From Planctomycetota bacterium (GTDB lineage: Bacteria; Planctomycetota; UBA8108; SXIK01): a DNA stretch of 64,000 bases. Below are positions 3,985-30,279 of this stretch, in pieces; position 1 is the first letter of the stretch; every line of letters starts with the position of its first letter. Made by a program: the position numbers and the translations under genes. The notes below the pieces were generated by a model. That model did not search any database. It saw only the letters and a list, made by a program, of their open reading frames with translations, and was not told the DNA's origin. The stretch is from assembly GCA_965223845.1 (NCBI GenBank), contig CBDCXR010000004.1, positions 5,696,001-5,760,000 of the forward strand, written 5' to 3'.

Positions 3985-4017
3985 TCTCCTCTCCGGGAGT
4001 CCATAGACGGAGAACGC

Positions 4018-7000
4018 ATGTCCGAGGGAAACACTCACGAGAGCCCCGATCGTTCGGATCAAATCGAAGGCGGCCTCCGTGCGGCCTTCGGTCCCGAAAC
4101 AGAAACCGACGGCATCGGCGCCGCGAGTGTTCTCCGACGACTCCGGAACTCGGGCGCTTCCGTCCCGCAGGTGAGCCTCCGCGATCTCGAGGAGGAACCC
4201 GTTCGCCGCATCCGAACGCGCCCGGGCGAAAAGGGCATCCCCGATCGGCTCGGTCGCTATCAACTCCTCGGGGAGATCGCTCGCGGCGGCGTGGGCGTCG
4301 TCTACAAGGCTCGCGACGTCGATCTGGGTCGCTACCTGGCGATCAAGATCCTCCTCGAGAAGCATCGCGGCCGTCCGGAGATGACGCACCGCTTCATCGA
4401 AGAAGCTCAGATCGCCGGCCAGCTCCAGCATCCGGGCGTCGCCCCCATCCACGAGCTCGGGATCATCGATTCCGACCTGCCTTACTTCGCGATGCGCCTC
4501 ATCAACGGACGCACGCTCTCCGCTCTCCTGCGCGAGCGCCCCTCCGCGCTCGACGACCGATCGCGCTTCCTCGCGGTCTTCGAGCGCGTCGCCGAAACAC
4601 TCGCTTACGCAAACGCGCGGGGCGTCATCCACCGCGATCTCAAACCCTCGAACATCATGGTCGGAGCGTTCGGCGAAGTTCAGGTCATGGACTGGGGTCT
4701 CGCGAAGGTCCTCGCCCAAGGCGGTGTGGCCGACGAAGAGCGCGCGTTTCCCGCGGAGAGCGCCGCCGGCAGCTCGATCAAGACGATCCGAAGCGGGAGC
4801 ACGATATCCGATTCTGTCGCCGGATCGGTTCTCGGAACGCCCGCCTACATGGCCCCCGAGCAGGCTCGAGGCGAGATCGGTCTCGTCGATGAGCGCTCGG
4901 ACGTCTTCGGTCTCGGAGCGATCCTCTGCGAGATCCTCACCGGTGAGCCTCCCTTCACCGGAAGCTCGAACGAGGAAGTCCACCGGCGCGCCAAAGCGGG
5001 CGATCTCGGAGGAGCCTTCCGTCGCCTCGCGGAATCGGGCGCGGACGAAGAGCTCGTCGATCTCGCGACTCGATGCCTCGCCGTCGATCGCTTCGCGCGT
5101 CCTCGCGACGCCGGCGTCGTTTCGCGCGAAGCCGCCGCGTACCGCACGTCTCTCGACGAGCGCGCACGCCGCTCGGAGCTCGAAGCCGCCGAAGCGCGGG
5201 TCAAGGCCCTCGAGGAACGCAAAGCGCGCCGGCGAACGATCGCCCTCGCGGCGACGGTTGTCGTCGCCGTCTCGCTCGTAGCGACGGTCTGGGTGTCGGC
5301 TCGGCGGCGCGAAGACTCGATCAAGGACGAGGAGACTCGCGCGGTCGAGCGGGAGCTCGGCTCGGCGAAGGATCACTGGGAGACGGCAAAGAGTGTCGAG
5401 GCGTTTCGCGCGGCGGAGTGGCGCCGCGCCGTCGAGGCCGCCCGGCGCGCCAATGAGCTTGTTACCGAGAGAGTCGACGACTCTCTGCGCACGGAGAGCG
5501 TCGAGCTCTTTCGTCAGGTGGACGCCGAGGGTCGTCTGCTCGAACAACTCGAGGAGATTCGGCTCGAGCACGCGGACGATCCGAACTGGGGGAGCCGCGA
5601 GCCCGGGTACGGCGACGCGTTTCGTGAGTTCGGCGTCGAGGTGGACGTCGAGTGGTCGAACGCCGGTCCGGTCATCGAGGAACTGCGGGCCACGGGCATC
5701 GGCCCGCAGCTCGCCTCCGCCTTCGATCACTGGGCGATGGCGCGGCGCCGGATCGCCACGGCCGCGCCCGAGACCTGGAAACGGCTGCTCCGCGTCGCGC
5801 GCGCGATCGATCCCGATCCGTGGCGGAGTCAGCTCCGAACCTCGTTCGAGAACGACAACCTCGAGGAGCTCCGGCGCCTCGCGCGGCGAAAGGAACTCCT
5901 CGAGACAGCACCTCCGAGCACGATCGTCCTCCTCGCTTCGAGCCTCATCGCTGCCGATCGACGCGAAGACGCGGAAATCCTCTACTGGCGAGCGTGGCAG
6001 CGTCACCGGGACGACTTCTGGATCAACCACGGTCTCGGCTACCTAGCGCTCACCGATCCTCAGCCGCGTCACGACGAGGCGCTTCTCTACTTCACCGCCG
6101 CGCTGGTGCTGCGTCCCCACAGCGCTCATGCGCTCCGAGACTACGGAGTGATTCTGCAGCGGCTGGGAAAGGACTCCGGCGCGAAGACCGCACTCGGGGA
6201 ATCGCTGAGCTCCGAGCGGAATCGAACGACGAACGCAGTCGCCTGGAGCCAGGGGACGACGCGAATCGAGACGGACCGATTCAGCTCCGTCCAGATGGTT
6301 GCGCTCGAAGGCGGACCCTGGGGCGATGCCGCGTTCGACCCGAAGGACTCGGAGACCTTCTTCGTCGGCGCCCGCCTCCCCGCCCAGAGAGACGACGGGA
6401 TCTACCGCGTCCGCCGCCGCGGCGGCGAGTGGATCGCAAGCGACAAGATCCTGACCGGGTCCTTTCCGTCGGATCTCAGTTTCGGGCCGGACGGCGCGCT
6501 CTGGATTGCGCGGACGATCAAACCTTACGTCTACCGCGTGACGAATCCCGGACAGCCGGCGAGCCAGGTGGTGAAGCGGATCATCGAGGAGTTCCAGACG
6601 AACGCAGACGACGATCCCATCGCGCTCGCCTTCGCTCCTCCCGGATTCGATGGTCCGGCCGCGCGTCCCGGTGATCTCATCATCGCCGACACCGCGGTCG
6701 ACGATCAGCTCGCGCCCCGACGGCTGGGGATCGCGACGTCGCTCGCGAAGTGCTTTTACGCGTTCACCCCGTCCGGCGGAGACGTCGCGCCCGACAGCTC
6801 GTCCTACCGCCGCTTCCTCGTCCGGCCCGAGACGCTGAGGAGTTACTTTCCCTACTACCTCACGGACTTCACGTTCTCTCGCGACGGTGCTTCGCTCTAC
6901 GCGCTCTTTGCGCAGGGCCGGATCTTGGAATTCGACGCCGCGGGTCGACTCGTCCGCGAGATTCCCGTTCAAGGCGACGTGGTCTTCGGCCATGCCACGG

Positions 7001-8565
7001 CGATCACGGCCGCGGCGGACGGACGACTGTGGATCTCCGACGATCATCGCGACGAGATTTGGTCCGTCGACGCCGCGAGCGGACTCGCTCGGCGAGAGAT
7101 CGCCTTCCTGAGCCCCGAGCGCCCACTCGAGCTGAGTACCGGTACGCTCACGTTCTCCCCTGACGGAAAAGAGCTCATCGTCGGAGAGCATCGGCGTGAG
7201 GGCGGACGGCTCTGGATTTTTCGCGACGATCCGACGACCGACAACCGTCGCCCCGTCGCCCGCATCGCCGAAGCTCTCGAGTCGCCCGTCGTCGTACGGA
7301 TCGGGGACGGAGCCTCTCTCACGCTCGACGGAAGTGATTCCGACGACGGCGACGGCGGCACCCAATCACTCTCGTTTCGCTGGACTCGGATTCGCGGCCC
7401 CGAGAGCGTCGCCATCGAAGACGCAGATCGTTCGACCGCAATCGTGCACTTCAGCGAACCCGGCGTGTACACCTTCGCGCTCGAAGTCGACGACGGCCGT
7501 GCTCGTCTCGGTCGGCACTCGACACAGATCGTCGTCTACGCGACGAACCAGCGGGCGGAGATCTCCGGACGGGCGGACGGACGATCGACGCGTTTCGACC
7601 GGGAGCATCTCGTTCGCGTCCTCCCGAAGGCCGCCGAGGTCGCCTTCGATCCGACGGACAACGCTCTGTACGCGATAGCCGACCGCGGTGCGGAACGCGG
7701 CGGCGGCGTTTATCGCATCGAGCGTCGGGGAGATTCCTACCGGATCGAAGATCGACTGATCGTTCAGCACAAGTACCAGGGGATCTCCTTTACGCCGAAC
7801 GGAGATCTCTGGCTCGTACGGGACCGCGAAGGCCCTCACTTAGTCGCCCTCCGCGCTCCGCTCACTCTCGCCCCTCACCGGATCGACCCGGTCATTTGGA
7901 ACTTCGGGAAGCCGGCCGACGACGACCCGCGGATCTTGGTCACCGTTCCCCCGGGATTCGTGAGCGATCGAGTGAGCCCGGGCGACCTCATCATCGGGGA
8001 CTGCGGCTTCGACACCGGATTCGGACAGTTGCGCCCGGGCGACCGCGAGGCGCTTCATGTTTACCGTCCCCGCGGCGCCGAAGCAGATGCTCGTCACGAC
8101 CTCCGAGCGTTCGATTCGCTCTTCGTCCCGCCGGACTCCCTCCGCGCCTACCACGCCCATCAACTCACGGACCTCGCTTTCGCAAGAGACGGTGCTGCGC
8201 TCTACGCACTCTACAAGAGTGGGCAGCTCATCGAGATCGATCCCCGGGGCGAAGTCGTGCGGGAGGTGCGAGCGATCGATCCGCTGACGCGCGTCGAAGG
8301 CACGGGGGCGAAGGCGCTCGCCGTCGACCCACTCGACGGGCGAATATGGATCGCGCGCGAGGTGTTCGATTCGGCGCCGCACCTGCTCTCTCTCGATCCT
8401 CAGACGGGAGAAGAACGAGTGGAGATCGTCTTCTACCGGGACGGGGCCCCTGCGTCCGAGCAAGCGCGCTTCCCTTCGCCCTCGCTGCGATTCTCGCCCG
8501 ACGGGCGACTCGTCGTCACGGACGCGAGCGGTTGGTTGTGGATCTTCGAAAAAGCGGGCTCCTAG
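4018..8565 (+). CDS. Membrane Ser/Thr protein kinase with TPR-like region, two beta-propeller modules and a PKD/Ig-like domain
   Basis: IARGGVGVVY, LAIK, HRDLKPSN, DWGLAK, GTPAYMAPEQ, DVFGLG. TM segment IALAATVVVAVSLVATVWV. PKD-like LTLDGSDSDD...FSEPGVYTFALEVDDG. ATG at 4018 with GGAG upstream preferred over the track start at 3799. Confidence 0.9.
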   Translation: MSEGNTHESPDRSDQIEGGLRAAFGPETETDGIGAASVLRRLRNSGASVPQVSLRDLEEEPVRRIRTRPGEKGIPDRLGRYQLLGEIARGGVGVVYKARDVDLGRYLAIKILLEKHRGRPEMTHRFIEEAQIAGQLQHPGVAPIHELGIIDSDLPYFAMRLINGRTLSALLRERPSALDDRSRFLAVFERVAETLAYANARGVIHRDLKPSNIMVGAFGEVQVMDWGLAKVLAQGGVADEERAFPAESAAGSSIKTIRSGSTISDSVAGSVLGTPAYMAPEQARGEIGLVDERSDVFGLGAILCEILTGEPPFTGSSNEEVHRRAKAGDLGGAFRRLAESGADEELVDLATRCLAVDRFARPRDAGVVSREAAAYRTSLDERARRSELEAAEARVKALEERKARRRTIALAATVVVAVSLVATVWVSARRREDSIKDEETRAVERELGSAKDHWETAKSVEAFRAAEWRRAVEAARRANELVTERVDDSLRTESVELFRQVDAEGRLLEQLEEIRLEHADDPNWGSREPGYGDAFREFGVEVDVEWSNAGPVIEELRATGIGPQLASAFDHWAMARRRIATAAPETWKRLLRVARAIDPDPWRSQLRTSFENDNLEELRRLARRKELLETAPPSTIVLLASSLIAADRREDAEILYWRAWQRHRDDFWINHGLGYLALTDPQPRHDEALLYFTAALVLRPHSAHALRDYGVILQRLGKDSGAKTALGESLSSERNRTTNAVAWSQGTTRIETDRFSSVQMVALEGGPWGDAAFDPKDSETFFVGARLPAQRDDGIYRVRRRGGEWIASDKILTGSFPSDLSFGPDGALWIARTIKPYVYRVTNPGQPASQVVKRIIEEFQTNADDDPIALAFAPPGFDGPAARPGDLIIADTAVDDQLAPRRLGIATSLAKCFYAFTPSGGDVAPDSSSYRRFLVRPETLRSYFPYYLTDFTFSRDGASLYALFAQGRILEFDAAGRLVREIPVQGDVVFGHATAITAAADGRLWISDDHRDEIWSVDAASGLARREIAFLSPERPLELSTGTLTFSPDGKELIVGEHRREGGRLWIFRDDPTTDNRRPVARIAEALESPVVVRIGDGASLTLDGSDSDDGDGGTQSLSFRWTRIRGPESVAIEDADRSTAIVHFSEPGVYTFALEVDDGRARLGRHSTQIVVYATNQRAEISGRADGRSTRFDREHLVRVLPKAAEVAFDPTDNALYAIADRGAERGGGVYRIERRGDSYRIEDRLIVQHKYQGISFTPNGDLWLVRDREGPHLVALRAPLTLAPHRIDPVIWNFGKPADDDPRILVTVPPGFVSDRVSPGDLIIGDCGFDTGFGQLRPGDREALHVYRPRGAEADARHDLRAFDSLFVPPDSLRAYHAHQLTDLAFARDGAALYALYKSGQLIEIDPRGEVVREVRAIDPLTRVEGTGAKALAVDPLDGRIWIAREVFDSAPHLLSLDPQTGEERVEIVFYRDGAPASEQARFPSPSLRFSPDGRLVVTDASGWLWIFEKAGS

Positions 8566-17176: not shown

Positions 17177-17850
17177 CGGAGTCCTCGTCGTCGGGTCGAA
17201 GGGACCGGAAGGAAACGGCCGAAAGGTGGGTGGTCTCGGGAAAGACCGGTACGCCCGCGGACCTCGCCGGGGCGGGTTCGAAACTCCCGCAGAGCTTGCC
17301 CAGATTCCTGCTGAGATTCTACTCCGCCGCCGGATGGCGCGGGCGTCCGTTCGCGACACGAATGTCGCGCCGGTTACCGGGTTCGCACCGCACCGCTCGT
17401 CCTAACAGCGCACGTCCTTGTCGCATCGGGTCTTACGACGACCTCGAACGCCGTTCGGACGGAGCTAGTCGAAGGATCCGAACCAGCTCGGCGTGAGCAT
17501 AGCACAGTCGCGCGGGGACTCAACTGTTGCGCGGCGCGCGGGGGAATCGCCGAGCGGCTGCTATCCGCCGCGCGAAAGTCATGAACGCGCGATTGCCGTT
17601 CGCGAGCCGGACTGCGTGCCGGTCGACCTCGGAGAGAAGAGGGAATACGGATTTCCCGTGTCATCTCCAGCTTCGTCGTTCTTCAGACCCTGTAGACGAC
17701 CGTATATCCGGGTCACGACGCGTTCGAAAAGCGATCGGATCTTCAGTTTTCTGCAGCCGGTGAAGTGCCGGTCGCGTTCGGTGGAGGCGGTCGCGACATT
17801 CATTCGGGAGGCGGCGTGGGGTCGCTTCTGATCTCGGTCCGTCCTGACGG

Positions 17851-17856
17851 AAGGAG
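17851..17856 (+). promoter_or_regulatory. Shine-Dalgarno site of the Cys-rich precursor gene
   Basis: AAGGAG located 8 nt upstream of ATG 17865. Confidence 0.8.
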
Positions 17857-17864: not shown

Positions 17865-18812
17865 ATGTTCGATGTCAGAGATCTAGGAGTCACCGTGTTG
17901 CCGGGCATGGGTTGCGGGGGATTTACCTGTCTCGGAGGCTCGTGTCTCGCGGGGAGTTGTCCGGGCGGTAGCTGTCCGGGAGGAACCTGCCAGAACGCGA
18001 CCTGCTTCGCGACGTGCGTCGGATTCACCTGCCTAGGCGCGACGCAAGGGTGTGCGCAGGCGACCTGCCCTGGAGGCAGTTTGTGCATCCAGCCATCGCA
18101 TTGCGCCCCGCCGACGTTCTGCGCTCAGCCTACGCACTGCGCGCAGCCCACACATTGCGCGTCACCCACGTTTTGCGCGCCACCGACTTCGTGTGCCCAG
18201 CCGACACTTTGTGTCCGACCGACGGTCTGCACCGATCCAACCCTCTGCGTCCAGCCGACGCACTGCAAACAGCCGACGGTGTGTTCCGATCCGACGCTCT
18301 GTATCGAGCCAACCCGCTGCGCGCCGCCCACCTCGTGCTCCGATCCGACGTTCTGCATCCAGCCCACGGTGTGTCCCGACCCCACGGTCTGCATACAGCC
18401 AACGCGATGCGCGCAGCCGACGATGTGTCCCGATCCGACGCTCTGTCTCACTCCCACCCACTGCAAGCAGTTCACGATCTGCACTCAACCCTCTCTCTGT
18501 CCTCGCCCGTCGATCTGCATCGAGCCGACGCTCGATTGCCCGGCAGCCAGCGTTCGGTGCCCGGGAGGCACGTGTGAGTTCGGCAGCGTTTGCGGCGGTG
18601 GAAGCTGCGCCGGAGGATCGGTGTTGACTGCCGACCCGAGCCGAATCGCGAGCCTCGACGAGCTCAAGTCCGAGCTCCAGCGAACACTGGCTCGAATCGA
18701 AGAAGTCGAGGCGCGAGAGCCGGATAGCGTCGACGAGATCGATGCCCGTATCGAAGGATTACAGGTTGAGATCGATCGCCTGAAGCAACTCCGCCAGGAA
18801 CTCGAACGATGA
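17865..18812 (+). CDS. Putative giant lanthipeptide-type RiPP precursor: 41 Cys in C-x-x-x-[S/T] repeats plus C-terminal coiled coil
   Basis: Strong RBS. 16-aa N-peptide, then pentapeptide units (CPGGS/T), ~25 CxxP[T/S]x units, more Gly-rich units and a 62-aa helical tail. Stop overlaps the next start (ATGA). The RiPP role is inferred from the neighbouring enzymes. Confidence 0.8.
   Translation: MFDVRDLGVTVLPGMGCGGFTCLGGSCLAGSCPGGSCPGGTCQNATCFATCVGFTCLGATQGCAQATCPGGSLCIQPSHCAPPTFCAQPTHCAQPTHCASPTFCAPPTSCAQPTLCVRPTVCTDPTLCVQPTHCKQPTVCSDPTLCIEPTRCAPPTSCSDPTFCIQPTVCPDPTVCIQPTRCAQPTMCPDPTLCLTPTHCKQFTICTQPSLCPRPSICIEPTLDCPAASVRCPGGTCEFGSVCGGGSCAGGSVLTADPSRIASLDELKSELQRTLARIEEVEAREPDSVDEIDARIEGLQVEIDRLKQLRQELER
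18084..18536 (+). repeat. 18-bp-period coding tandem repeat (CxxP[T/S]x hexapeptides)
   Basis: 24 consecutive hexapeptides CIQPSH...CPRPSI plus CIEPTLD. Codons are diverged while C, P and T are retained. Confidence 0.9.
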
Positions 18813-19993
18813 CGAGCGTCGAGACGTTCGAGTCGGCACGGCTCCGCTCCGCGCGATTTCGCGCGAATCCGGATTATTCGCTCGTGCCGTTCGATCGGCT
18901 CGACGGGTCGGAGCGCGGCTCCCTTGAGGAGCTGCGCCCCGACCCGGAATTCTATGGCGTGATGAAGCCGGTCGAGGGGTCGCGAGGGAACGTCAAGAGA
19001 GTCGACCCGCACACTGCGCTTCTTCTTCTGACGCTCGACGATCCCGGCGGACTACCCAGCTACGTTCTCGCCCGTTTGGGCGAAGATCTAAGGCCTGTTG
19101 CACAGCTCTTGCTTGAGGGCCTACTCGAGATCGAACGAAACGGGATCTTCGTAAGTGGTCCGGAGAGCCTCGACGGACTTCGTTCGGGAACGAAGCTCTC
19201 TCGTCCGATTCGGTCCTTCCTCGCGGCTCTCTCGGAGCGCGCGGTCCGACTCGCTCAGGACTTGCCGACTTCGGACGCCCAGAAGATCGCAGCTCGTCTT
19301 TATATGTACCACCGGCTCCCCGCCACATCGCGCTGGCGCGACGAACTGGGAAACGACGAGGGAGTCGAGAAGGCGCTCGGGCTCGATCGAAATTCAGTGC
19401 GCCACCTGCTCAACCGGCATTGGCAGCGAATCGATACGCCTCCACCGAACGACCATTGGCTCGCCTGGTCGGCCGCACCAGCGCGTGCTCAGAGACCGAC
19501 CCAGGGCCCGACCTACAAATTGTACGTAAGTCCTCACCCCGACGACCTAGGTGAGGTATTCGAACGCACGGTGGAGATCTTGACCGAACAGAACGTGCAG
19601 TCGTTCAAGATCGGTCGCGATACGGGAGGACTCCTCAGGCCTGACAAATTCGTCGCGTACTTCTGGGATCGCGCGCAGCTCTTCGAGACCGGAGAGCGAA
19701 CTGCCGCAGCTCTCAGCGGATTTCGCGCGCACGGCGTCCCGTTCACCGCCGCTCTCGACGATCGGGGCATGGTCTCGTGGGGAGTTGATCCCGACCGGCC
19801 GGAGTTTCAAGTGCGGTGGCTCTCGGACGAAAGCTGGAGACTACGTGTCACACGGCGGCTCGCGACCGCACTCGTAGATTGCCGAGACGCGCCGAGTGGC
19901 GCGATGGAACCGTGGGAGTTCGCCCTCGAGCGCGTGCGTCTCGAAGGGATCGACGTCGATACCTGGACGCCCGAGGAGGCGAAGAACCAGTGA
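18809..19993 (+). CDS. HopA1/OspF-like phospho-Ser/Thr lyase with N-terminal RRE-like domain
   Basis: YKLYVSP, SFKIG, RPDKFVAYF, GVPFT, SWGVDP, ESWR resemble LanL/HopA1 lyase motifs (WKLHVS/FK/GKFITVY-like). Coupled to both neighbours (ATGA, GTGA). Confidence 0.7.
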   Translation: MTSVETFESARLRSARFRANPDYSLVPFDRLDGSERGSLEELRPDPEFYGVMKPVEGSRGNVKRVDPHTALLLLTLDDPGGLPSYVLARLGEDLRPVAQLLLEGLLEIERNGIFVSGPESLDGLRSGTKLSRPIRSFLAALSERAVRLAQDLPTSDAQKIAARLYMYHRLPATSRWRDELGNDEGVEKALGLDRNSVRHLLNRHWQRIDTPPPNDHWLAWSAAPARAQRPTQGPTYKLYVSPHPDDLGEVFERTVEILTEQNVQSFKIGRDTGGLLRPDKFVAYFWDRAQLFETGERTAAALSGFRAHGVPFTAALDDRGMVSWGVDPDRPEFQVRWLSDESWRLRVTRRLATALVDCRDAPSGAMEPWEFALERVRLEGIDVDTWTPEEAKNQ

Positions 19994-22365
19994 CTTCCCC
20001 TGACACGACGTACGTCCTACCGCCCGACGTGTTGGTGATTCCGGCCGGAGACCTCGACGGCGATGTGCGCTCGCGGATGGAGATGAGCGACCGAGAATTC
20101 GCTCTGACACGCCCTCGGGCGCGGATTCCATCCAAAGTCGTCGATGCAGACACCGCTCGCCTACTCGAGCAGTTTCGGGAGCCAAGCTCGATCGTGGAAG
20201 CGGTCGTGCGGTATTCCACGCCACGCCACCTCGATTCGGAGCACGTGCTCGAGGCGGCTTATCCTATGCTCCGGGGCTTGACCGAGGCTCGTTTACTCCT
20301 GCGCGACGGCGAGGAGGGTAGCGAACCCATCGAAGCCGCTTTTCATCCGGGCGATCGCTTCGCGGGATTCGAGGTTCTCCGCCTCGTCCACGTATTCGAG
20401 GACACCGAACTCTACCGTGCGCGCCAATCCACCGGACAGGAGGTCGCGTTGAAACTCGCGCGTCCGCCTCATGCCGATACGATGCGCTCGGCACTTCAGC
20501 GTGAGGCCGCCCTTCTCGAGGGGCTCGCCAATGCGGCAACGCCCGGCGTCGTCGCCTTCGGAGAGGAGGACGGACGTCCGTATCTTGCGTTGGAGTGGAT
20601 CGACGGAGTACCTCTCGCGCAAGCCGCCCACTCGCTGCGCGGCGGTGCGTCCGCGCGCGCTCATCTTCTCGACCTCGCTGTCCGCGTCGTCGAGACGTAC
20701 GCCGAACTCCACGCCGCGCACGTGCTTCACTCGGACGTGCACCCGGGAAACGTGCTCGTGGACAAAGCCGGGTCCGTCGTACTTCTCGACTTCGGACTCA
20801 GCCGCCGAACCATCGCCGGGGATCCTCTCGCTTCTGCCGGACGCGGGGGAATCTCGACCTACTTCGAGCCGGAATACGCCGCAGCCGTCCTCAACGGACA
20901 GACCGTCCCGCCTTCCACCGCGGAAGGTGAGCAATTCAGCGTCGCGGCGCTCGTCTACTCCGTGCTGTGCGGACAGTCGTATGTCAACTTTCCTTTCCAT
21001 CAGCGCGACTTGCTAAGGGCGATCGTCGAACAGCCCGTTCGGGCATTCAGTGACTGGGGTCAGGAACCTTGGTCGGACGTCGAGTCCGTCCTCTCGCGAG
21101 CTCTAGCGAAGTCCCCGGCGGACCGCTTTCCCTCCATGGCTGCATTCGCTGACGCGCTAGGAGCAGCGCGTTCGACGACGAAGATCCGAAGAACGGGAAA
21201 CGATCTGGAGAGCGAGGTCCAGGCAACGGCGGAAGAAATCGTCGCTCGCACGGTGGAGCGGGCTCGGCCGAACGGCGAACTCGGTCGCACCGGCTTCATC
21301 GAGCCGCCCCGAAGCTCGGTGAACTTTGGGGCCGCTGGCCTCGCCTACGCGCTCCTACGCATGGCGACGATCCGCGAAGACGGAGAGTTGCTCGCCCTCG
21401 CGGATTATTGGTCTGCCCGCGCGGTTCAAGACTCAGAGCGCGACGGCGCGTTCTACAATCCTCAACTCGATCTCCCGCGAGAGATACTCGGGTCCAACAC
21501 GCTCTACCACACAGCCTCGGGTGTATGGCTCGTCCGAGCCTTGGTGGCTAGAGCGCAGCTCGATCAAACCGAGCTCAACGCGGCGCTTCAGTCGTTCGGG
21601 CAAGCGGCGAACACCGAGACCGACAACTTGGACGTCGCCCTCGGCCAAGCAGGGATCATTCTCGGCTGCGCCTTGCTGGCCGAGGTGGAAACCGACGTCG
21701 CCGGGCTACGGGAGTTCGGTGACGGTCGCGTCACCGCGTTGTGGAGAACGCTCGAGGGCGCGAGCCCGAGGCGACGCGAAGAGCGTCGGCTCAACCTCGG
21801 AATGGCGCACGGCTGGGCCGGAGTGCTTTTCGCCACTCTACGTTGGGCTCGAGCCGTGGGAGCTCAACTCCCGGCCGGGTTCGAAGCGAATCTCGGAGAG
21901 CTGGTCGACTGCGGCATTCCGGCGGGCGACGGGATGCGTTGGCCTTGGTTCGACGGAGGTTCTCCGAACCGGTCAAGCTCGATGGTCGGCTGGTGTAACG
22001 GGAGCGCTGGTTTCGTATTCCTTTGGTCCCTCGCGAGTCGGCATTGGCCCGACGGCCGCTGGCTCGAACTCGCTCGAAGAACGGCTCAACACGCGTTCGA
22101 CGGTCGAGATGGTGCGGTCAGCCTGTGCTGCGGCGCCCTCGGCAGCGCGTGGGCGATGCTCGATCTCGCTCGCGCGGGGGGAGGAGACGAGTGGGTCAAG
22201 CGTGCTCAAGAGCTCTTTCTGCTCGCGGCCGCACGAGCGGACCAACTCCAAGACCAGCGGGACAGCCTGTACAAGGGCGAGTTGGCGCTCGCTCTTCTGG
22301 CCGCCGAGATCTTGCGCCCCGAAGACGCATGTATGCCCATGTTCGGTGAACTAGAGCCGCATTGA
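19990..22365 (+). CDS. Ser/Thr kinase-LanC cyclase fusion (lanthipeptide synthetase lacking a fused lyase), N-terminal RRE-like domain
   Basis: Kinase VALK, REAALL, HSDVHPGNVLV, LLDFG. LanC GAAGLAYAL, GQAG, GMAHGWAG, GWCNGSAG, SLCCG, SLYKG. GTG at 19990 with GAGGAGG RBS. Confidence 0.88.
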   Translation: MTSPDTTYVLPPDVLVIPAGDLDGDVRSRMEMSDREFALTRPRARIPSKVVDADTARLLEQFREPSSIVEAVVRYSTPRHLDSEHVLEAAYPMLRGLTEARLLLRDGEEGSEPIEAAFHPGDRFAGFEVLRLVHVFEDTELYRARQSTGQEVALKLARPPHADTMRSALQREAALLEGLANAATPGVVAFGEEDGRPYLALEWIDGVPLAQAAHSLRGGASARAHLLDLAVRVVETYAELHAAHVLHSDVHPGNVLVDKAGSVVLLDFGLSRRTIAGDPLASAGRGGISTYFEPEYAAAVLNGQTVPPSTAEGEQFSVAALVYSVLCGQSYVNFPFHQRDLLRAIVEQPVRAFSDWGQEPWSDVESVLSRALAKSPADRFPSMAAFADALGAARSTTKIRRTGNDLESEVQATAEEIVARTVERARPNGELGRTGFIEPPRSSVNFGAAGLAYALLRMATIREDGELLALADYWSARAVQDSERDGAFYNPQLDLPREILGSNTLYHTASGVWLVRALVARAQLDQTELNAALQSFGQAANTETDNLDVALGQAGIILGCALLAEVETDVAGLREFGDGRVTALWRTLEGASPRRREERRLNLGMAHGWAGVLFATLRWARAVGAQLPAGFEANLGELVDCGIPAGDGMRWPWFDGGSPNRSSSMVGWCNGSAGFVFLWSLASRHWPDGRWLELARRTAQHAFDGRDGAVSLCCGALGSAWAMLDLARAGGGDEWVKRAQELFLLAAARADQLQDQRDSLYKGELALALLAAEILRPEDACMPMFGELEPH

Positions 22366-23781: not shown

Positions 23782-24099
23782 TGAAGTCGGGATCGCGCGA
23801 GGCTTCAGCTGGACGGCTGCCGCTTTTCTACGTACGATGCTGCTTAGTTGTGTGTGTTTGAGCGGTCCCTTCGAACGACGCGTCGCCGCGAGGCGCGCTG
23901 AAGCCGGATCGCTTCACCGGAGTTCGCGAATGAGGGGCGATCGATGATGCGCACTCGACGGGAGCGCCGTAGGCCGATGCCCTCGCTCTCGGCAAACGCA
24001 GTGGTGTTCGTCTAGGAATCATCCGGCACGGCGGAGGTGGGATGCGGTGTGTGGGTCCCACGATCGCCTCGTGCGCAGGAAGCTACGTGGGATGGCAAC

Positions 24100-25362
24100 A
24101 TGACCGACATCTATCAGGCGATCTGGGACGCGGATCAGGCGGAGAACGGCATTCGACCGATTCTCGATACCGACGACGGCGACGACGCATCCGGGTTCGT
24201 CTCGGTCAACAGCCGACTTTCGGCTGACGACCCGGCTCTCCGCGTTCTTCCTGAAGCGGTGATTCCGCCTTCGAAGCGACCGACCTACGACCTCTGTCTC
24301 CAGCTCTTCGACAACTACGCACTCCGCGAGCGCGACGAAGAGATCGAGACCCCCGCCGAACGGGAAGAAGTGCACGAGCTCGTTCAGGCCATGATCGAGA
24401 CCGCGCCCATGGAGGTCGCGCGCGAGTACGTCGCGACCCAGACGGGCACGGGCGTCAGCCGGGAGCGCTGGTACACGACGATCATGGAGATGTGGTTCCG
24501 ACGCTTCACGATGGGAGGCGATCCGGACCTAAGCGGCTTCGAGCACGTCGTCGTCGGAGAGCAAGAGGGCTCGAAAGCGCAGGGCTATCACTTTTGGTAC
24601 AAGTACTATCTCGACGACGGTTTCGCCGGGGAGCTCGACGGCGATCACTCGGACGATTTCCCCAATCTTCCGAACGATCGCATCGCGTATTTGGGATCGC
24701 GAATGGCCACGGGACAGAGGCAGTTCCCGGAGACGGTCACCATTTCGTACCGCTGGCTCGCGCCCGACTACGACCGCGGCGCGATGAGGCCGCTCACGAA
24801 ACCGACGGGCGGATTCTTCGTGGGCTGCAGCGTGGAGGGACTGCTCGCGATCGGGACGATCCGCGCGCACCGCGGCGTCCAGGCGCCCACCAAGGCTGTG
24901 ATCAACGGGGCGAAGTACTCGCTCGCGATGTACACGAGCCAAAACGGACGACACGTTCGAACCTTCTATCCGAAGTTCCTCGGAGAGGCCCCGGCGCCCG
25001 GCGATGAAGGCGGCGGAGTCGTTCCCCCGGTTCGTGCTGTCGAGAGCGTGCGGCTCGTCGCCGCCCTCGTCAATCCCGAAGGACACGACCCCGGTCTCGA
25101 GACGGTGACCCTGCTCAATCGCTCGGCGAGCCCGGTGTCGATCGAAGGCTGGAGCGTCGTCGATCGAAATCAGCGCGCGACGACGCTCGGGGGAACGATC
25201 GGCCCCGGCGACGCCGTTCGCGTTCGTCTCGACGGTCGGGGCGCGCAGCTCTCGAACTCGGGCGGAGAGATTCGGCTCCGCGATGCCTCGGGGACCACGA
25301 TCCACTTCGTCACGTATTCCCGAGCCCAGGCGCGAAAGCAGGGCACGACCATCGTTTTCTGA
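24100..25362 (+). CDS. XendoU/EndoU-family ribonuclease fused to a lamin-tail (LTD) domain
   Basis: IWDADQ, LFDNY, SGFEHVVVGE, GYHFW, KPTGGFFVGCS (His-His-Lys triad). C-terminal AALVNPEG..ETVTLLN...IEGWSVVD...LSNSGGEIRL. Confidence 0.8.
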   Translation: MTDIYQAIWDADQAENGIRPILDTDDGDDASGFVSVNSRLSADDPALRVLPEAVIPPSKRPTYDLCLQLFDNYALRERDEEIETPAEREEVHELVQAMIETAPMEVAREYVATQTGTGVSRERWYTTIMEMWFRRFTMGGDPDLSGFEHVVVGEQEGSKAQGYHFWYKYYLDDGFAGELDGDHSDDFPNLPNDRIAYLGSRMATGQRQFPETVTISYRWLAPDYDRGAMRPLTKPTGGFFVGCSVEGLLAIGTIRAHRGVQAPTKAVINGAKYSLAMYTSQNGRHVRTFYPKFLGEAPAPGDEGGGVVPPVRAVESVRLVAALVNPEGHDPGLETVTLLNRSASPVSIEGWSVVDRNQRATTLGGTIGPGDAVRVRLDGRGAQLSNSGGEIRLRDASGTTIHFVTYSRAQARKQGTTIVF

Positions 25363-25400: not shown

Positions 25401-26915
25401 ATGCTTCGTTACATCAAGAAACTCACGAGCGAAAAGCAGCCCTACACGACTCCCCTCTACAAGCGCGCTTCGGGCGACGACCATTCGATCGAGCTCCTGT
25501 GGGGAGATCGCGTGCGCGTTTTGGACTCGAGCGGGAGCCGCTTCCGCGTTCGCGCGCGCGGCAAGACAGGCTTCGTCAAAAAGAATCGACTCCAGACGAA
25601 GTCGCTGCTCGAGCTCTACTTCATCGACGTCGGTCAGGGAGACGGTGTGCTCGTGCGAACTCCGGACGACCGCCACATTCTCATCGACGGAGGCTGGCCG
25701 CGCCGAAGTCAGCCGACGGGAAAGAACGCAGCGGATTTCGTCGACTGGAAGTTCGTCAAAGACTACGAACGAAAAACCGTCCATCTCGACGCCATGATCT
25801 GCTCGCACAACGATCAGGATCACTACGGCGGTCTATGGGACTTGCTCGACGTGAAGCAAAAGGACGAGCTCGACGCCGAGGGGGTGACGGTCGAGAACTT
25901 CTATCACGCGGGACTGTCGTGGTGGAAATCCGGCGGGAAGCGAGTCTTGGGACCGTCGATCGAGACGTCCAAGGGCAAGATGTGGACCCGGCTGCTCGAC
26001 GATCGCGCGAGTCTCGAGAAGGGCCTCAAGACGTCGGGAAGCCATCCGAAGCTGCAGGGCGAGTGGGCGAGCTTCCTCCGATCCGTGCGTGACGCGAAGA
26101 GCTCGGGCGGCGCTCCGACCCCCGTAGAGCGCCTCAGCAGCGCGACCGGAGTCTTGCCGGGATTCGACAGCTCCGATCTTCGCATCCACGTCTTGGCGCC
26201 GGTCGAGTTCGACGTGGACGGGAAGTCGGTCATCCGCAAGTTCCCCGACGGGAACAGCAAGAACACGAACGGCAACAGTGTCCTTCTCCGGCTCGACTAC
26301 AAAAAGTCGCGGATCCTTCTCACCGGCGACCTCAACCTCCACAGTCAAACATCGCTCCTCGCGGACTACGGGCGGAACACGGACGTTTTCTTCAGCGATG
26401 TCGCGAAGGCGTGCCACCATGGAAGCGGCGACGTCTCGATCTCCTTTCTCGAACGGATCGAGCCTGCGTGCACCATCATTTCGTCGGGCGACAGCGAAGG
26501 ACACGATCACCCGCGACCGGAGATCATCGCGGCGAGCGGCCTCACCGGAAAGCGAGAGACGCGAGGCGACAAGCTCGTCACACCCCTCGTCTATTCGACG
26601 GAACTCGCGCGCAGTGTGGCGCTCGGACGCGTCACGAAGATCGAGGAGCTTCGAGCGAGCGGAACCGTTCAAGAGACGTACGAAGAGGACGAGCTCAAGA
26701 AGCTGAAGGCTTACTTCAAGGTTGTCGACGCCGGTGCTCGAGCCCCGAAGAGTGGCTCCGCTCGTGTCGCCCACCGTCGGCTGGCGGCGAGCACCACTTA
26801 CGGGTTGATCAACATCCGCACGGACGGCTCGACCATCGTGGCGGCCGCACTCAACGAAAAAGAGTTCAAGTGGAACGTCACGTCGTTCAAGGCGCGGTTT
26901 CCCGGAGTCGGCTGA
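25401..26915 (+). CDS. ComEC/Rec2-like MBL-fold metallo-hydrolase with N-terminal SH3-like segment
   Basis: FIDVGQGDG, LIDGG, SHNDQDHYGG, NGNSVLLRL, LTGD, KACHHGS, HDHPR. GGAGG RBS. Confidence 0.85.
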   Translation: MLRYIKKLTSEKQPYTTPLYKRASGDDHSIELLWGDRVRVLDSSGSRFRVRARGKTGFVKKNRLQTKSLLELYFIDVGQGDGVLVRTPDDRHILIDGGWPRRSQPTGKNAADFVDWKFVKDYERKTVHLDAMICSHNDQDHYGGLWDLLDVKQKDELDAEGVTVENFYHAGLSWWKSGGKRVLGPSIETSKGKMWTRLLDDRASLEKGLKTSGSHPKLQGEWASFLRSVRDAKSSGGAPTPVERLSSATGVLPGFDSSDLRIHVLAPVEFDVDGKSVIRKFPDGNSKNTNGNSVLLRLDYKKSRILLTGDLNLHSQTSLLADYGRNTDVFFSDVAKACHHGSGDVSISFLERIEPACTIISSGDSEGHDHPRPEIIAASGLTGKRETRGDKLVTPLVYSTELARSVALGRVTKIEELRASGTVQETYEEDELKKLKAYFKVVDAGARAPKSGSARVAHRRLAASTTYGLINIRTDGSTIVAAALNEKEFKWNVTSFKARFPGVG

Positions 26916-26978: not shown

Positions 26979-28970
26979 TCAGCGCGATCCGCGCCAAGGA
27001 AACGCGTAACTCGGCTGGTGCACAAAGCGGGAGAGATCGACACGAACTCGGCCCACTGCTCCGGGGGCGAGCTCGATCTGAAGGTGCTTTCCCCCGACGG
27101 AGAGTTCTGCTCCCCCGCCTCGAGCTCGATCGAAGCGGTGTTCGCCGAACGCACCCGCCTGAACGAGAACGACACGCGGTTCGCTGGGCTCGGTGTTCAC
27201 AAGGACGAGTTCGAGGCCCGCATCGGTCACCTTGTCGACCAAGGCCGCGACGCCGGGAGGCAATCCGGGACGACGTCGCTCCGGATCGAAGTGACGAATC
27301 TGGGAGTGGAGGAGGCCGCCGTGGTAAATGTGATTCGGCGCGCCGGTGGTGAGCTGAACGAGGCCTTCGAGAACGACCGGATTGAGCTGCTGCCAGTGAT
27401 GCACATCCTGCTCGTCGACCGTCGTTCGATCGGCGCGGATCTTCGCCAGCCGCCGGAGCGACTCGCGGTAGGTGTCGATGAGAATCGCATCGGGATAGTC
27501 CGGATTCTCGCCGCGAAGGAAGCTCAGCCAGCCTTCCTCGTTGCTTGAGTCGCCTTTTCCTTTCGAGTACCTGGCCCGAGACCAGGACGCCACTTCCGCA
27601 ATTTTCTCGATGCGCTCCCAATCGTCCGCGCGCCGAGAGAGACACCAGAGCTTGATCGGACACTCGGGGTCGAGTGGGCGATAGGCGTACCAACCGCGCT
27701 CGTCGTGCTTGTGCGGAACGACGCGCCGTCCGTTCTCGAGGCGGCTCTGCTTGAGCACAACGTCGATCTGCGATCGCGGCAGCTCGAGATAGCTTGCGTC
27801 TCCGCTCACGAGAAGCGCGTTCGACGCGGCGATCGTAGTCGACTCGAGCAGATTGAAGAATCCGTGGGGCCAGCGCCAGCCGTAGTAGCCGCCCCACCAT
27901 TTCCCGCTGGTGTACTCGCCGATCTCGCCGGAGAGTCCGACGTTGTCCGGGATGATCCCGCCGTTTCGCCGCGTCCGCTCGATCCATGCCGCGACGTATT
28001 CGAGAACCCAGCGGCGATATTTCTCGTCCCCGGTGTAGAGATACGCGTTCACCATCAAGCTCGTCGCGGTCAGATTGAGCGGCACGTCGCCCCGCATCAT
28101 GCGTTCGTTGAGCGCGCGCAGAATGAAGGGAAACTTCGCGTCGTCGACCCATGCGCTGCTGTCGTCGACGTTCGGAATGTCGTCGTACGGCAAGGGGTAG
28201 TGAGCGAGAACGGGTCGGTGCGTCACCCAATCCTCAGCCGAGTTGACGAAACGCGGCCCGCGGCTGCCGTTCAGCGGTGAGCGGATGAGCTTTCGCTCGG
28301 CGTCCCAGTTCGGCGCCTCCGGGTCTTCGTTCAGGTAGAGCCCCGCGAAACGGATCGCGCGTTCGCGATCCTTCGACACGGTCGGATCGGCGAGCCCGAA
28401 GAAGTAGAAATACACGTAGCTCTCGCCGTGGTGCATCCAGTCGTAGTAGGCGTCGAACTCGTTGTGAATTTGTCCGTAGCGAGTGAATTGAAGCGTGACG
28501 GCGTTCCACAGCTTCCGCGAGAGCGCGTGGATCTCTTCGGGACCACCGAGCACATAGTAGAGGGGAAAGTTGTAGAAGCTCTCGTAACCGTCGTCGGAAC
28601 CGTCCATTCCGGGCCAGCGGTCGCGCCAGATGATCGAACCGTCGGGGCGCGTGTACTTCTCGACGAACTCTCGCGCCGCGCTCGCGAGGTGATCGAAGAG
28701 AAAACGCTGGCGGAGCGCCCAGCTCGGCGGCGGAGCCGCGGTGGTGATGCGAAGCGTCGGATACTCGGCCGGCGAGGAAGCGACCGGAGGCTCGATGCCT
28801 TGGCCCGAGCTCGGAATGTCGGCGGAGATCGAAACGAGGGAAGTCGCTGCACTCAGAAGGAGTGCGACCAGAGTGATTCGCCGCGAGCGGATTTCGTTCA
28901 ACTCCGCGATCCTTTCGAACCGGTCACGATGCCGACGCGCACTCGGCGACAGTCGGTTTCGGCGTTTCAC
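26979..28970 (-). CDS. Conserved hypothetical secreted protein, possibly (alpha/alpha)-barrel glycoside hydrolase/lyase-like; start uncertain
   Basis: Long protein-like ORF with signal-like segment ITLVALLLSAATSLV and acidic motifs DGSDDGYESF, YDWMHHGES, GIIPDNVG. The fold is inference. Confidence 0.6.
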   Translation of the reverse strand: MKRRNRLSPSARRHRDRFERIAELNEIRSRRITLVALLLSAATSLVSISADIPSSGQGIEPPVASSPAEYPTLRITTAAPPPSWALRQRFLFDHLASAAREFVEKYTRPDGSIIWRDRWPGMDGSDDGYESFYNFPLYYVLGGPEEIHALSRKLWNAVTLQFTRYGQIHNEFDAYYDWMHHGESYVYFYFFGLADPTVSKDRERAIRFAGLYLNEDPEAPNWDAERKLIRSPLNGSRGPRFVNSAEDWVTHRPVLAHYPLPYDDIPNVDDSSAWVDDAKFPFILRALNERMMRGDVPLNLTATSLMVNAYLYTGDEKYRRWVLEYVAAWIERTRRNGGIIPDNVGLSGEIGEYTSGKWWGGYYGWRWPHGFFNLLESTTIAASNALLVSGDASYLELPRSQIDVVLKQSRLENGRRVVPHKHDERGWYAYRPLDPECPIKLWCLSRRADDWERIEKIAEVASWSRARYSKGKGDSSNEEGWLSFLRGENPDYPDAILIDTYRESLRRLAKIRADRTTVDEQDVHHWQQLNPVVLEGLVQLTTGAPNHIYHGGLLHSQIRHFDPERRRPGLPPGVAALVDKVTDAGLELVLVNTEPSEPRVVLVQAGAFGEHRFDRARGGGAELSVGGKHLQIELAPGAVGRVRVDLSRFVHQPSYAFPWRGSR

Positions 28971-30279
28971 CTTCGCCGAACAGGAATCCGAGAAGCCGCA
29001 GCGCGTCCGCGATGTTCACATCGCCATCGGAGTTCGAGTCGGCGGCGCCGCGGCACGACAGCTCCGCGCCCGCGCCAAACAGCCAATTGAGAACCGCGAG
29101 GACGTCGCTGATGTTGATCGCCTCGTCGCGGTTGGCGTCTCCGCGCAGAGCGGCATCGTCCAGGTGGCTCCGGTTGAGATACACGACGACCGTGTTCTCC
29201 AGCTCCGCCGTCGAGGCGAAGTCATCGCGGCCGTCTTCGTCGAAATCGCCGACGGCGATCCCCCACGGTCCCTTCTCGTGCGGAAACGATTCTGGTGCGG
29301 CGAAGCACCCCTCGCCGTCGCCACGAAGCACGCTGACGGATTCGTCACGCCAATTGCCTGCGACGAGATCGACGTTGCCGTCCTCGTCGAGATCGATCGC
29401 CACGACGGTGAGCGCGTGCGAGGCGAGCTCGTAGTCGTCCCGGCGTTTGAACTTCCGATCCGATAGAGCGGCGACGATGGTCAGCGCGTCGCCGTGGGCC
29501 ACGGCGAGATCAAGGATGCCATCGCCGTCGAAATCGTGCGGTAAGACAAAGTGAACATTCTCGAAGCCAGCGATGTCGTCCCGCGCGAAACTGCCGTCTC
29601 CGCGTCCCCAAAGAAGCGTCGCCGATTCGCTGTACGCGTTCGCGACCGCGAGATCGACGTTGCCGTCGCGATCGATATCGCGGGCGGCGAGTCCCGTAGG
29701 CCCGTCGCCCACCTCGATCGAGGCGGGCAGAGCGAAGCCTCCCTCGCCATCCCCGAGTAAGATCGCGACGTCGTCGTCGTTTCGAACCGGTCCGGCGAGG
29801 TCAGGGTTGCCGTCGCCGTTGAAATCCGCGGTCACGGTCCGCAGGGCGAAATTCCCGATCGGATGCCGGCGCAGATTCGATAGCACGCCCGTACCGTCTC
29901 CGGAGAGAACGTAGAGCTCGCCGTTCGTGTGACTCGACGACGCGACATCCAGGTGTCCGTCGCCGTCGTAATCCGCGATCGCGAGTGAGAGAACGTGGGA
30001 GTCCTCCGTGCCCTCGACGAACACCGGCTCGAGAGGCGTAAACGTCGCGTCGCCGTAGCCGAGATAGACGCGGATGTCGTAGCTGTGGTGGCACGCGACG
30101 ACGAGGTCGAGGTGTCCGTCGGCATCCATGTCCGCGGCATCGATCGTCGCGGGACAGATTCCGGTCGGGAATGACTCGATGTCGAAGCGAACTCGTCCGT
30201 CGGCGGACGCGTGAGTGCCCTGAACGATCGCGAGAGCGAATCCACCCGCCGCCGCGATGAGCTTAGCTCTGGTCGACAT
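28924..30279 (-). CDS. Secreted FG-GAP/VCBS repeat protein with C-terminal dockerin-like domain
   Basis: Signal peptide. Seven DxDxDGxxDL-type repeats. LRGDANRDEAINISD...ADSNSDGDVNIAD. Confidence 0.88.
   Translation of the reverse strand: MSTRAKLIAAAGGFALAIVQGTHASADGRVRFDIESFPTGICPATIDAADMDADGHLDLVVACHHSYDIRVYLGYGDATFTPLEPVFVEGTEDSHVLSLAIADYDGDGHLDVASSSHTNGELYVLSGDGTGVLSNLRRHPIGNFALRTVTADFNGDGNPDLAGPVRNDDDVAILLGDGEGGFALPASIEVGDGPTGLAARDIDRDGNVDLAVANAYSESATLLWGRGDGSFARDDIAGFENVHFVLPHDFDGDGILDLAVAHGDALTIVAALSDRKFKRRDDYELASHALTVVAIDLDEDGNVDLVAGNWRDESVSVLRGDGEGCFAAPESFPHEKGPWGIAVGDFDEDGRDDFASTAELENTVVVYLNRSHLDDAALRGDANRDEAINISDVLAVLNWLFGAGAELSCRGAADSNSDGDVNIADALRLLGFLFGEGETPKPTVAECASAS

Follow-up and report, generated by a model that had tools for sequence, protein, structure and literature searches.

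What becomes of a protein of 315 amino acids (aa) in which nearly every Cys is followed, at one fixed distance, by Ser or Thr? The gene for this protein lies in a 64,000-nucleotide (nt) stretch of DNA from a Planctomycetota bacterium (GenBank assembly GCA_965223845.1, contig CBDCXR010000004.1, positions 5,696,001 to 5,760,000 of the forward strand), which we call the window, and an earlier note on this DNA had drawn attention to its Cys array. We found that it is the first of three adjoining genes, the second encoding a free-standing protein predicted to fold like a phospho-Ser/Thr lyase and the third a kinase-LanC fusion. We propose that the 315-aa protein (the precursor) is the single substrate of a three-gene lanthionine-installing cassette and would carry about 41 consecutive rings in which Cys precedes its Ser/Thr partner (Cys-first); we put the probability of this reading at about 0.5. 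The genomic context strongly supports a lanthionine-type modification.

We found that the 41 Cys of the precursor fall between residues 17 and 248 and that Ser or Thr (S/T) stands four residues downstream (i+4) of 40 of them. Our recount agrees with that of the earlier note, also on the sole exception, Cys47 (in CFATC), which has Thr at i+3 and another Cys at i+4. In 100,000 shuffles of the 236-residue core, chance gave a mean of 8.4 matches and a maximum of 19; the 40 matches are not independent of each other, since they lie in a tandem array. Successive Cys are 6 residues apart in 26 cases, 5 in ten, 7 in three and 4 in one. Our spacing tally likewise agrees that the distance from Cys to S/T is constant at 4 while 0, 1 or 2 residues separate S/T from the next Cys, so that S/T-to-Cys offsets take three values (+1, +2 and +3). 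The array does open with Cys and close with Ser, as had been claimed (Cys17 at nt 17913, Ser252 at nt 18618-18620), but the end given for it, 18623, runs one codon over, into Val253.

Judged from its DNA, the repeat array is old and not the product of recent amplification. There are 26 six-residue units across the whole core, and at the DNA level (18 bases each) all 26 are distinct, with a mean pairwise nucleotide identity of 55%; the units draw on both Cys codons and on four Thr codons, and the DNA repeats reported by Tandem Repeats Finder are weak (72-78% matches). Cys and S/T at +4 are each conserved in 26 of the 26 units and Pro at +3 in 23, while the remaining three positions hold 8-9 residue types apiece. 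Hence, the register is kept by selection, because the units have diverged in DNA and at the variable positions while Cys, S/T and Pro were retained.

By their sequence, the genes for the precursor, the lyase-fold protein and the kinase-LanC fusion are translationally coupled: start/stop overlaps join all three (ATGA at 18809 and GTGA at 19990). The second gene encodes a protein of 394 aa, whose AlphaFold2 model, built from an alignment of 26 family members, has a mean predicted local distance difference test score (pLDDT) of 88.8. Its best Foldseek matches in the PDB are exclusively phospho-Ser/Thr lyases or their relatives: HopA1 (4rsx, E 6.2e-8) comes first and LxmY (9dk1_B, E 9.8e-8), which is part of the class V lexapeptide dehydratase, comes second, and the lyase domains of CuvL, ThurKC, SalKC and PneKC, together with SpvC and OspF, are also matched. 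The residues invariant in the family include K237, Y239, K267, R277, D279, K280 and Y284. An excerpt of the CaoY study (PMC9486802) describes K219, R229 and Y236 of that enzyme as catalytic or phosphate-binding, and K267, R277 and Y284 are spaced identically (10 and 7 residues). The matches listed include more than 1,000 homologues, about 400 aa in length and all annotated as hypothetical.

The third gene encodes a fusion of 791 aa. Homology to relatives starts at residue 59-65 of the longer open reading frame (ORF), i.e. at the GTG at 19990. Pfam places a kinase domain (Pkinase, 4e-17) ahead of a cyclase domain (LANC_like, 2.6e-18), with the aminoglycoside phosphotransferase (APH) model weaker at 2.2e-7, and the best fold match of the kinase is PknB (template modeling (TM) score 0.85 on the target). 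In an alignment of 21 kinase-LanC relatives (A2), K155, H247, D249, H251, N254 and D267 (of DFG) are invariant, as an active kinase would have them, and so are His607, Cys669 and Cys713-Cys714. The predicted zinc site has His607, Cys669 and Cys713 in place, and its third ligand position is Cys714 (CCG), not His. Among solved sequences, the eukaryotic proteins LanCL2 and LanCL1 come closest to the LanC domain (E 3.7e-28 to 9.9e-25), and the best NCBIfam model for the fusion is LanL (NF038150; 158.9 bits, 1.8e-46), with the alignment starting at model position 191 and the lyase part of the model left unmatched. The 7.9-Mb host genome has no other LanC-like domain.

From the gene order, domains, catalytic motifs and family statistics, which are observed, we infer the modification of the precursor, its chemistry and the ring polarity as follows. 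The Hanks-type kinase domain would phosphorylate the Ser/Thr four residues past each Cys, the HopA1/LanY-like lyase would eliminate the phosphate to give dehydroalanine or dehydrobutyrine (Dha/Dhb, together Dhx), and the CCG-type zinc LanC domain would add the Cys thiol to it. Pairing of Cys(i) with Dhx(i+4) would yield about 41 non-overlapping (methyl)lanthionine rings of five residues, 40 closed at i+4 and one at i+3, spaced 0-2 residues apart. The N-terminal motif and the helical tail of the precursor would serve enzyme recognition and perhaps oligomerisation.

Does this arrangement occur elsewhere? Used directly as a homologue query, the precursor gave zero matches at E <= 0.001; hence, its family was reached through the adjoining lyase gene. 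We scanned genomes with the lyase alignment, one representative for each of 185,579 species, and found 348 stretches that encode a lyase relative, 80 of which were kept as loci (cited as L with a number); at least 546 metagenome stretches encode one as well. A homologue of the kinase lies 3' of the lyase on the same strand in 79 of the 80 genome loci, and at the one locus without it (L077) the contig stops 52 nt past the lyase. The LanC C-terminus is reached by 71 of these 79 kinase homologues; the other 8 fall short, at least some of them at contig ends. The HG, WCxG and CCG motifs are all kept in 65 of 65 full-length homologues.

Upstream of the lyase, a hidden Markov model (HMM) of the N-terminal motif scored at least 8 bits in 58 of the 78 genome loci with at least 250 nt of DNA on that side and in 54 of 73 metagenome loci. 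Looser patterns added 12 loci, so that a precursor-like ORF precedes the lyase in at least 70 of the 78, and by eye some of the remaining loci (e.g. L021 and L041) also hold candidates. The HMM took the place of regular-expression screens, which missed many loci (45 of 81 and 39 of 78). The lanthionine context presumed in the earlier note is therefore real in the sense that coupled lyase-fold and kinase-LanC genes follow the precursor and that the cassette is conserved elsewhere.

The precursors share a common plan, which we read from their alignment (A3): an N-terminal motif M-x-F-K-V-K-D-L-M-I-x-V-L-P, a hypervariable core of Cys, Ser and Thr, and a C-terminal helix L-x-x-L-K-x-Q-L, usually prolonged by P-Q-T-x-x-E-V-D...K-L...E-L. 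F2 is invariant, D6 and L7 are nearly so, and L271, L275 and P286 are nearly invariant in the tail. The window precursor carries all three parts and aligns with its relatives at both ends. The shortest precursor found has 61 aa and the longest 315, a 46-aa fragment at L034 aside, and the number of Cys lies between 2 and 50. Across the cores, Cys and S/T counts are correlated (r = 0.92), with Cys/S/T pairs such as 41/49, 33/34, 32/34, 30/32, 29/29 and 28/28. Hence, the Cys count tracks the S/T count as intramolecular pairing of Cys with dehydrated residues predicts.

Individual precursors vary on this plan. One from a metagenome (L088:443-1351) has 50 Cys and 51 S/T in CTxCTx and CSDGCT units; hence, the window precursor is large for the family but not extreme. 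The CGGLTP array of L127:1107-1844 has period 6 like that of the window and S/T at +4, with Pro at +5 rather than +3. Two tandem precursor genes with the same termini and different cores precede the lyase at L012:5782-6817 and L038:2366-4061, and in the latter locus the lyase and kinase-LanC genes lie about 1 kb apart. At L034:6495-6861 a frameshift appears to split the precursor, leaving the N-terminal motif (46 aa) and the Cys-rich core with its tail in different frames; either the assembly is in error here or the gene is a pseudogene. In the host genome itself, the A3 profile found a single locus, the precursor's own (E 1.2e-17); a second match (L002, E 2e-6) was rejected as a low-complexity PTFAAF run in an unlikely frame.

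We found the cassette in Acidobacteriota (Terriglobia, Bryobacterales, Thermoanaerobaculia, Vicinamibacteria and Holophagales) and also in Chloroflexota, Eremiobacterota, Armatimonadota, Actinomycetota and Planctomycetota. Two named strains that are not marked as metagenome-assembled carry it, Bacillus pfraonensis 70b (L036) and Amaricoccus macauensis DSM 101730 (L055). The lyase was found in 0 of 60 genomes related to that of the window; hence, the cassette is patchy in this lineage. A metagenome scan with P0002, a lyase homologue of 64% identity, gave zero matches. Flanking ORFs, called crudely as the longest ones of 120 aa or more, were clustered all against all, and no protease or transporter family recurred among them; by eye the N-terminal sequence of the precursor (read with no predictor) has no signal peptide. 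The absence of recurrent protease and transporter genes, along with the conserved helical tail, points indirectly to a product that may not be secreted.

We next turn to the polarity of the rings, for which the precursors were counted in two sets. Set 1 (genomes) has 47 sequences with 664 Cys, including the window protein (41 Cys, 40 matches), and set 2 (metagenomes) has 31 sequences with 624 Cys and no overlap with set 1. Candidates from 13 extra loci that came from the regular expressions only were pooled into set 1, those lying at least 1,000 nt upstream or at least 330 aa long were left out, near-duplicates (>50% shared 6-mers) were removed, and each sequence had to have at least 6 Cys, or at least 3 for the end-effect counts. 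Compared with shuffled sequences, S/T at Cys+4 is enriched 2.4x in set 1 (308 vs 128.2) and 2.27x in set 2 (311 vs 137.1). Position +1 is enriched as well (1.87x and 2.55x), position +2 is depleted (0.16x and 0.2x), and the highest negative offset reaches 1.29x and 1.27x. Hence, the expectation that the Cx3[S/T] spacing is kept in homologues holds as an enrichment, though not universally, as L008 and L025 (below) make plain.

Isolated Cys, i.e. those with no second Cys within 6 residues, were counted separately because periodic arrays confound an offset of +a with -(period-a); the S/T baseline of the cores is 21%, and the window protein was left out of these counts and of those for first and last Cys in set 1. 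For isolated Cys, +4 is the top offset in both sets, with 97 of 203 (48%) in set 1, followed by +3 (60) and -4 (57), and 48 of 76 (63%) in set 2, followed by -3 (24). The ends of the arrays agree with this. Downstream of the first Cys, S/T occurs within 5 residues in 63 of 63 sequences of set 1 and 34 of 34 of set 2, whereas upstream of it this holds for only 23 and 8 of them, respectively; the last Cys has S/T within 5 residues downstream in 56 of 63 and 33 of 34. Hence, the arrays generally open with Cys and close with Ser/Thr, and pairing each Cys with a preceding S/T would leave both ends unpaired. Taken together, the family-wide statistics and the single ring size in the window protein favour Cys(i)-Dhx(i+4) pairing. 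For the window protein, we would rate Cys-first polarity as roughly twice as likely as the alternatives, and no higher.

Other offsets also showed patterns. Offsets +1, +4 and +5 are enriched in both sets, and +3 is at 1.17x in one and 0.52x in the other. S/T follows isolated Cys at +2 in 7 of 203 and 4 of 76 cases. This depletion at +2 could reflect the specificity of the kinase or the cyclase, or the avoidance of competing rings.

Several observations weigh against our reading. On the side of the enzymes, the lyase assignment rests on a predicted fold whose TM scores are moderate (0.33-0.42 on the query); no Pfam family matches the 394-aa protein above its cut-off (RamC_N scores 17.2 vs 27 bits, and HopA1 is not matched), and its sequence profile found in the PDB a chance GGDEF match (E 0.082) and no solved lyase. 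Hence, kinship with the lyases is detectable at the fold level only. That K267, R277 and Y284 may be counterparts of the CaoY residues follows from equal spacing and no structural alignment. The LanL score of the kinase-LanC protein falls far below the curated cut-off of 650. On the side of the substrates, i+4 accounts for 4 of 29 Cys in L008, 5 of 30 in L025 and 5 of 20 in L017, the top offsets of L090 are +5, +1 and -3, and other homologues place S/T at +3 (CYASGGG, CTPSPP); the family thus either tolerates several registers or mixes polarities.

A further point concerns the tail. Complex prediction of the tail (residues 245-315) with the kinase-LanC protein gave an interaction score (ipSAE) of 0.47 (0.47, 0.44 and 0.51), with 0.00 for the best of 3 controls, a partner pLDDT of at least 67 and at least 55% of contacts shared between runs. 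When the tool was calibrated, 58 of 80 solved complexes passed the mark, as did 2 of 110 mismatched pairs; scores of at most 0.60 among those passing took in 7 of the 80 solved complexes and both of the mismatches, and the calibration is only approximate for user-made alignments. The prediction thus suggests weakly that the tail may bind the kinase-LanC protein, and its weakness counts against us. The tail could be a follower-type recognition element or an oligomerisation element. Its L-x-x-L-[KQ]-x-Q-L pattern resembles the helical leader motif of class III/IV substrates, and by this analogy the tail might act as a follower rather than a leader.

The polarity is the point at which our reading is most open to challenge from within the same chemistry. 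The cassette could instead make rings that are S/T-first or mixed, e.g. Dhb(i)-Cys(i+2) in the hexapeptide units, adjacent or longer links in the pentapeptide ones, or overlapping rings, and we regard this as rather unlikely but worth serious weight. In the great majority of known lanthipeptide bridges, according to an excerpt of PMC11251773, the partner of the Cys is a Ser/Thr that precedes it by three or more residues, so that the classical polarity dominates. The homologues short of i+4 matches carry CTxxC (L008, L090) or CSxxxC (L025, L116), which correspond to the classical spacings Dhx-x-x-Cys and Dhx-x-x-x-Cys with no S/T at +4. In the window precursor, 26 of the 41 Cys have S/T at -2 (T-x-C), a spacing that is equally regular in the hexapeptide units. 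The S/T-first arrangement would, however, require three ring sizes in the window protein (+1, +2 and +3) where the Cys-first one requires a single size, its T-x-C and T-C links would be shorter than the norm of three or more residues, Cys17 would have no near partner and Ser252 would be spare. The family counts point the same way, since the first Cys seldom has S/T upstream and isolated Cys prefer +4 over all negative offsets.

Two other explanations give up the rings. The kinase and lyase might act on the precursor and no local ring form: Dha/Dhb would persist or take an external thiol, in the manner of LanCL proteins, with Cys left free, metal-bound or disulfide-bonded, or the modification would stop at phosphorylation. 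The kinship of the LanC domain with LanCL2 and LanCL1 (one LanCL1 entry is named glutathione S-transferase), the 17% Cys in the core and the flanks that have no recurrent export or protease genes are consistent with this idea, yet it gives no reason for the near 1:1 ratio of Cys to S/T or for the fixed Cys-to-S/T register, the cyclase motifs are invariant in every full-length homologue, and a thiol stands next to each acceptor in every substrate. We therefore consider it improbable. The precursor could even be an unmodified Cys-rich repeat protein, metallothionein-like or disulfide-rich, with lanthionine-type enzymes adjacent by chance, as its high Cys content and regular repeat might suggest; its core matches no Pfam or NCBIfam model, including any metallothionein family. 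This seems very improbable to us in view of the start/stop overlaps, the recurrence of the three-gene order across phyla, the conservation of N- and C-terminal segments around hypervariable cores and the way in which S/T follows the Cys count. There are also 8 Phe and 5 His in the core, a composition atypical of metallothioneins.

How does the cassette relate to known lanthipeptide systems? It resembles class IV LanL enzymes (VenL, SgbL, CuvL) in joining a Hanks-type kinase to a zinc-type LanC cyclase and in a dehydration that would proceed through phosphorylation and an OspF/SpvC-fold lyase, the CuvL lyase domain being among the fold matches. In LanL, however, lyase, kinase and LanC form one polypeptide, whereas the lyase here is separate and, at 394 aa, has an extra N-terminal half. 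The residues used by the cyclases SgbL (His710, Cys769, Cys814, His815) and NisC (His212, Cys284, Cys330, His331), as given in part of PMC8341899, also differ from those predicted for the cassette: SgbL has Cys-Cys-His zinc ligands (Cys769, Cys814, His815), and the cassette has CCG with Cys in the third position. Class IV substrates have an N-terminal leader, whereas cassette substrates run to ~60-315 aa with conserved segments at both ends; the 315-aa window precursor accordingly does not look like a canonical LanA (30-120 aa in mining tools, N-terminal leader and C-terminal core).

With class V (LxmK/LxmY, CaoK/CaoY) the cassette shares a stand-alone HopA1-like lyase beside a separate kinase, a likeness at the fold level only. 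Class V kinases are aminoglycoside-phosphotransferase-like and a known LanC-type cyclase is often absent, according to parts of PMC11186320 and PMC9486802, whereas the cassette kinase is Hanks-type and fused to LanC; it is thus neither APH-type nor LanC-independent. The class III LanKC cyclase is devoid of zinc ligands and its substrates carry S-x-x-S-x(2-5)-C, in contrast to the zinc-type motifs found here; the NCBIfam LanKC model gives the kinase-LanC protein 77.8 bits against a cut-off of 575, over the kinase part only. ProcM and the prochlorosins (class II) share with the cassette a CCG cyclase and conserved segments that flank hypervariable Cys/Ser/Thr cores, and an excerpt of PMC13509491 ties the ProcM-like CCG motif to substrate promiscuity. 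They differ in that the host genome here has one substrate gene and the products of the cassette would have tens of rings in place of a few. No LanM dehydratase domain was found in the cassette with Pfam, and TIGR03897 (LanM) scores 51.1 bits vs 304 over the cyclase part only.

The LanC domain is likest, among solved sequences, to LanCL1 and LanCL2, and Walker et al., in a part of PMC7268733, group the LanCL proteins of humans in one clade with the kinase-linked LanC domains of class IV. LanCL proteins are stand-alone, have CHG and use an external thiol, whereas the cassette LanC is fused to a kinase and stands beside a Cys-rich substrate. Cys-first thioether rings have precedent in ring A of mersacidin and in cinnamycin and duramycin. 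Those are single reverse rings in classical topologies; here the reverse polarity would repeat about 40 times.

The kinase-LanC protein has one more part. About 125 residues with no Pfam match precede its kinase domain; in the model, three short strands and four helices make up the first ~100 of them. A search of the ESM Atlas with the N-terminal 120 residues yielded nothing usable, and a fold search with the whole model returned kinase domains only and nothing for the N-terminal domain. Going by the order of strands and helices in the model and by the topology of such elements, this domain might be like a precursor-peptide recognition element (RRE).

The features of the cassette are collected in Table 1.

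Table 1. Positions of the cassette genes and their parts in the window.
Feature	Position (nt)	Strand	Basis or remark
Shine-Dalgarno-like GAAGGAG	17850..17856	+	8 nt 5' of precursor ATG; from sequence reading
Precursor (putative substrate) gene, 315 aa	17865..18812	+	N-terminal motif, Cys/Ser/Thr repeat core and C-terminal helical tail
Conserved N-terminal motif MFDVRDLGVTVLP, putative recognition segment	17865..17903	+	Motif HMM, 13.6 bits
Core, Cys17-Ser252	17913..18620	+	CxGG[S/T]-like pentapeptide units at both ends
Central hexapeptide array C-x-x-P-[T/S]-x, residues 74-223	18084..18533	+	Repeat counts
C-terminal helical tail SLDELKSELQRTL...EPDSVDEID...LKQLRQELER	18621..18809	+	A3 alignment
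Stand-alone protein, 394 aa, predicted phospho-Ser/Thr lyase fold (HopA1/LanY-like)	18809..19993	+	ATG overlaps precursor stop (ATGA)
Kinase-LanC fusion, 791 aa, GTG start	19990..22365	+	GTGA overlap with lyase stop; GGAGG upstream
Hanks-type Ser/Thr kinase domain	20413..21132	+	Pfam; intact Lys, HxDxHxxN loop and DFG
LanC-like cyclase domain: His607 (HGWAG), Cys669 (WCNG), Cys713-Cys714 (CCG)	21319..22212	+	Motifs

Outside the cassette the genes are unrelated to it. PurF, a short-chain dehydrogenase and a flavin adenine dinucleotide (FAD) oxidoreductase are encoded on one side of it, and on the other an amidase on the opposite strand, followed by a protein with XendoU and lamin-tail domains (LTD) and a metallo-beta-lactamase (MBL)-fold protein. 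The closest named relatives of PurF are planctomycetes (67-69% identity), which by itself would make the host a probable member of Planctomycetota. The closest lyase homologue, P0002, and a PurF homologue of 69% identity, P0153, may share a 10,958-nt contig, and a related organism may thus keep PurF beside the cassette.

Some neighbours in the window have features of their own. The XendoU ORF (24037..25362, +) joins an endoribonuclease domain (4.7e-32) to the lamin-tail domain (2.5e-10), a seemingly unusual combination in bacteria. The MBL-fold protein (25401..26915, +) has similarity to ComEC/Rec2, anti-phage Avs1a and 6A-MBL, all below the NCBIfam cut-offs. An ORF of 1,588 aa (3799..8565, +) has an N-terminal Ser/Thr kinase, tetratricopeptide repeats (TPR), beta-propeller-like repeats and a domain like that of polycystic kidney disease protein (PKD), and nearby lie a sulfatase (30406..31908) and an FG-GAP/dockerin protein (28924..30279); this gene content is seemingly typical of planctomycetes.

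Elsewhere, the Thermoanaerobaculia loci (e.g. L024, L042, L046, L053, L058 and L072) have proteins of ~1,180 aa that flank the cassette on one or both sides, as in L024 at 2928-6497 and 10501-14067. These proteins have two tandem Ser/Thr kinase domains and a repeat-rich C-terminal part that is TolB-like by eye. The precursors in the same loci are short (66-110 aa) and have no long coiled-coil extension.

A search of the full-text literature, with most subscription journals and supplements outside its scope, found no description of the cassette, of the pairing of a LanY-like lyase with a kinase-LanC protein or of the precursors. We rate the cassette as a split class IV/V-hybrid synthetase with protein-sized repeat substrates, i.e. 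a variant of lanthionine biosynthesis. Existing mining would have passed over it in part: the largest precursor-mining study dropped ORFs of more than 120 aa and required both LanC-like and Pkinase Pfam matches for a class III or IV label (Walker et al., in the parts of PMC7268733 cited here). Hence, the many cassette precursors longer than 120 aa would be missed by such a filter, and automated pipelines would tag the kinase-LanC protein 'class III or IV'. An excerpt of a peatland survey (PMC13642348) lists 73 'class IV lanthipeptide' clusters and holds no further analysis of them; the cassette could account for such orphan clusters from soils and peat.

The cassette is common, and its two enzymes are a stand-alone lyase of the class V type and a kinase-LanC protein of the class IV type. 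Known lanthipeptides have up to seven bridges, as stated in part of PMC11251773, and the window precursor probably becomes a string of some 40 small rings, a number well above that of any described lanthipeptide. If the rings form as we propose, one protein would hold some 40 thioether rings, mostly in the rare Cys-first orientation. Tentatively, and as a proposal that taken whole is somewhat unlikely, the precursors may be the founding members of 'lanthionine proteins': protein-sized, non-exported, with ~41 contiguous rings of reverse polarity (Cys to the Ser/Thr four downstream) on a coiled-coil tail in the case of the window, products of a split synthetase (LanY-like lyase and CCG kinase-LanC) that has so far gone unrecognised and that occurs widely in Acidobacteriota, Chloroflexota, Eremiobacterota and others, and serving the cell, internally or at its surface, as a material or scaffold and not as an antibiotic. 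The C-x-x-x-S/T unit, with a CCG cyclase of the kind associated with promiscuity, would be a compact tool for protein stapling, and the strains B. pfraonensis 70b and A. macauensis DSM 101730 would make direct tests practical.

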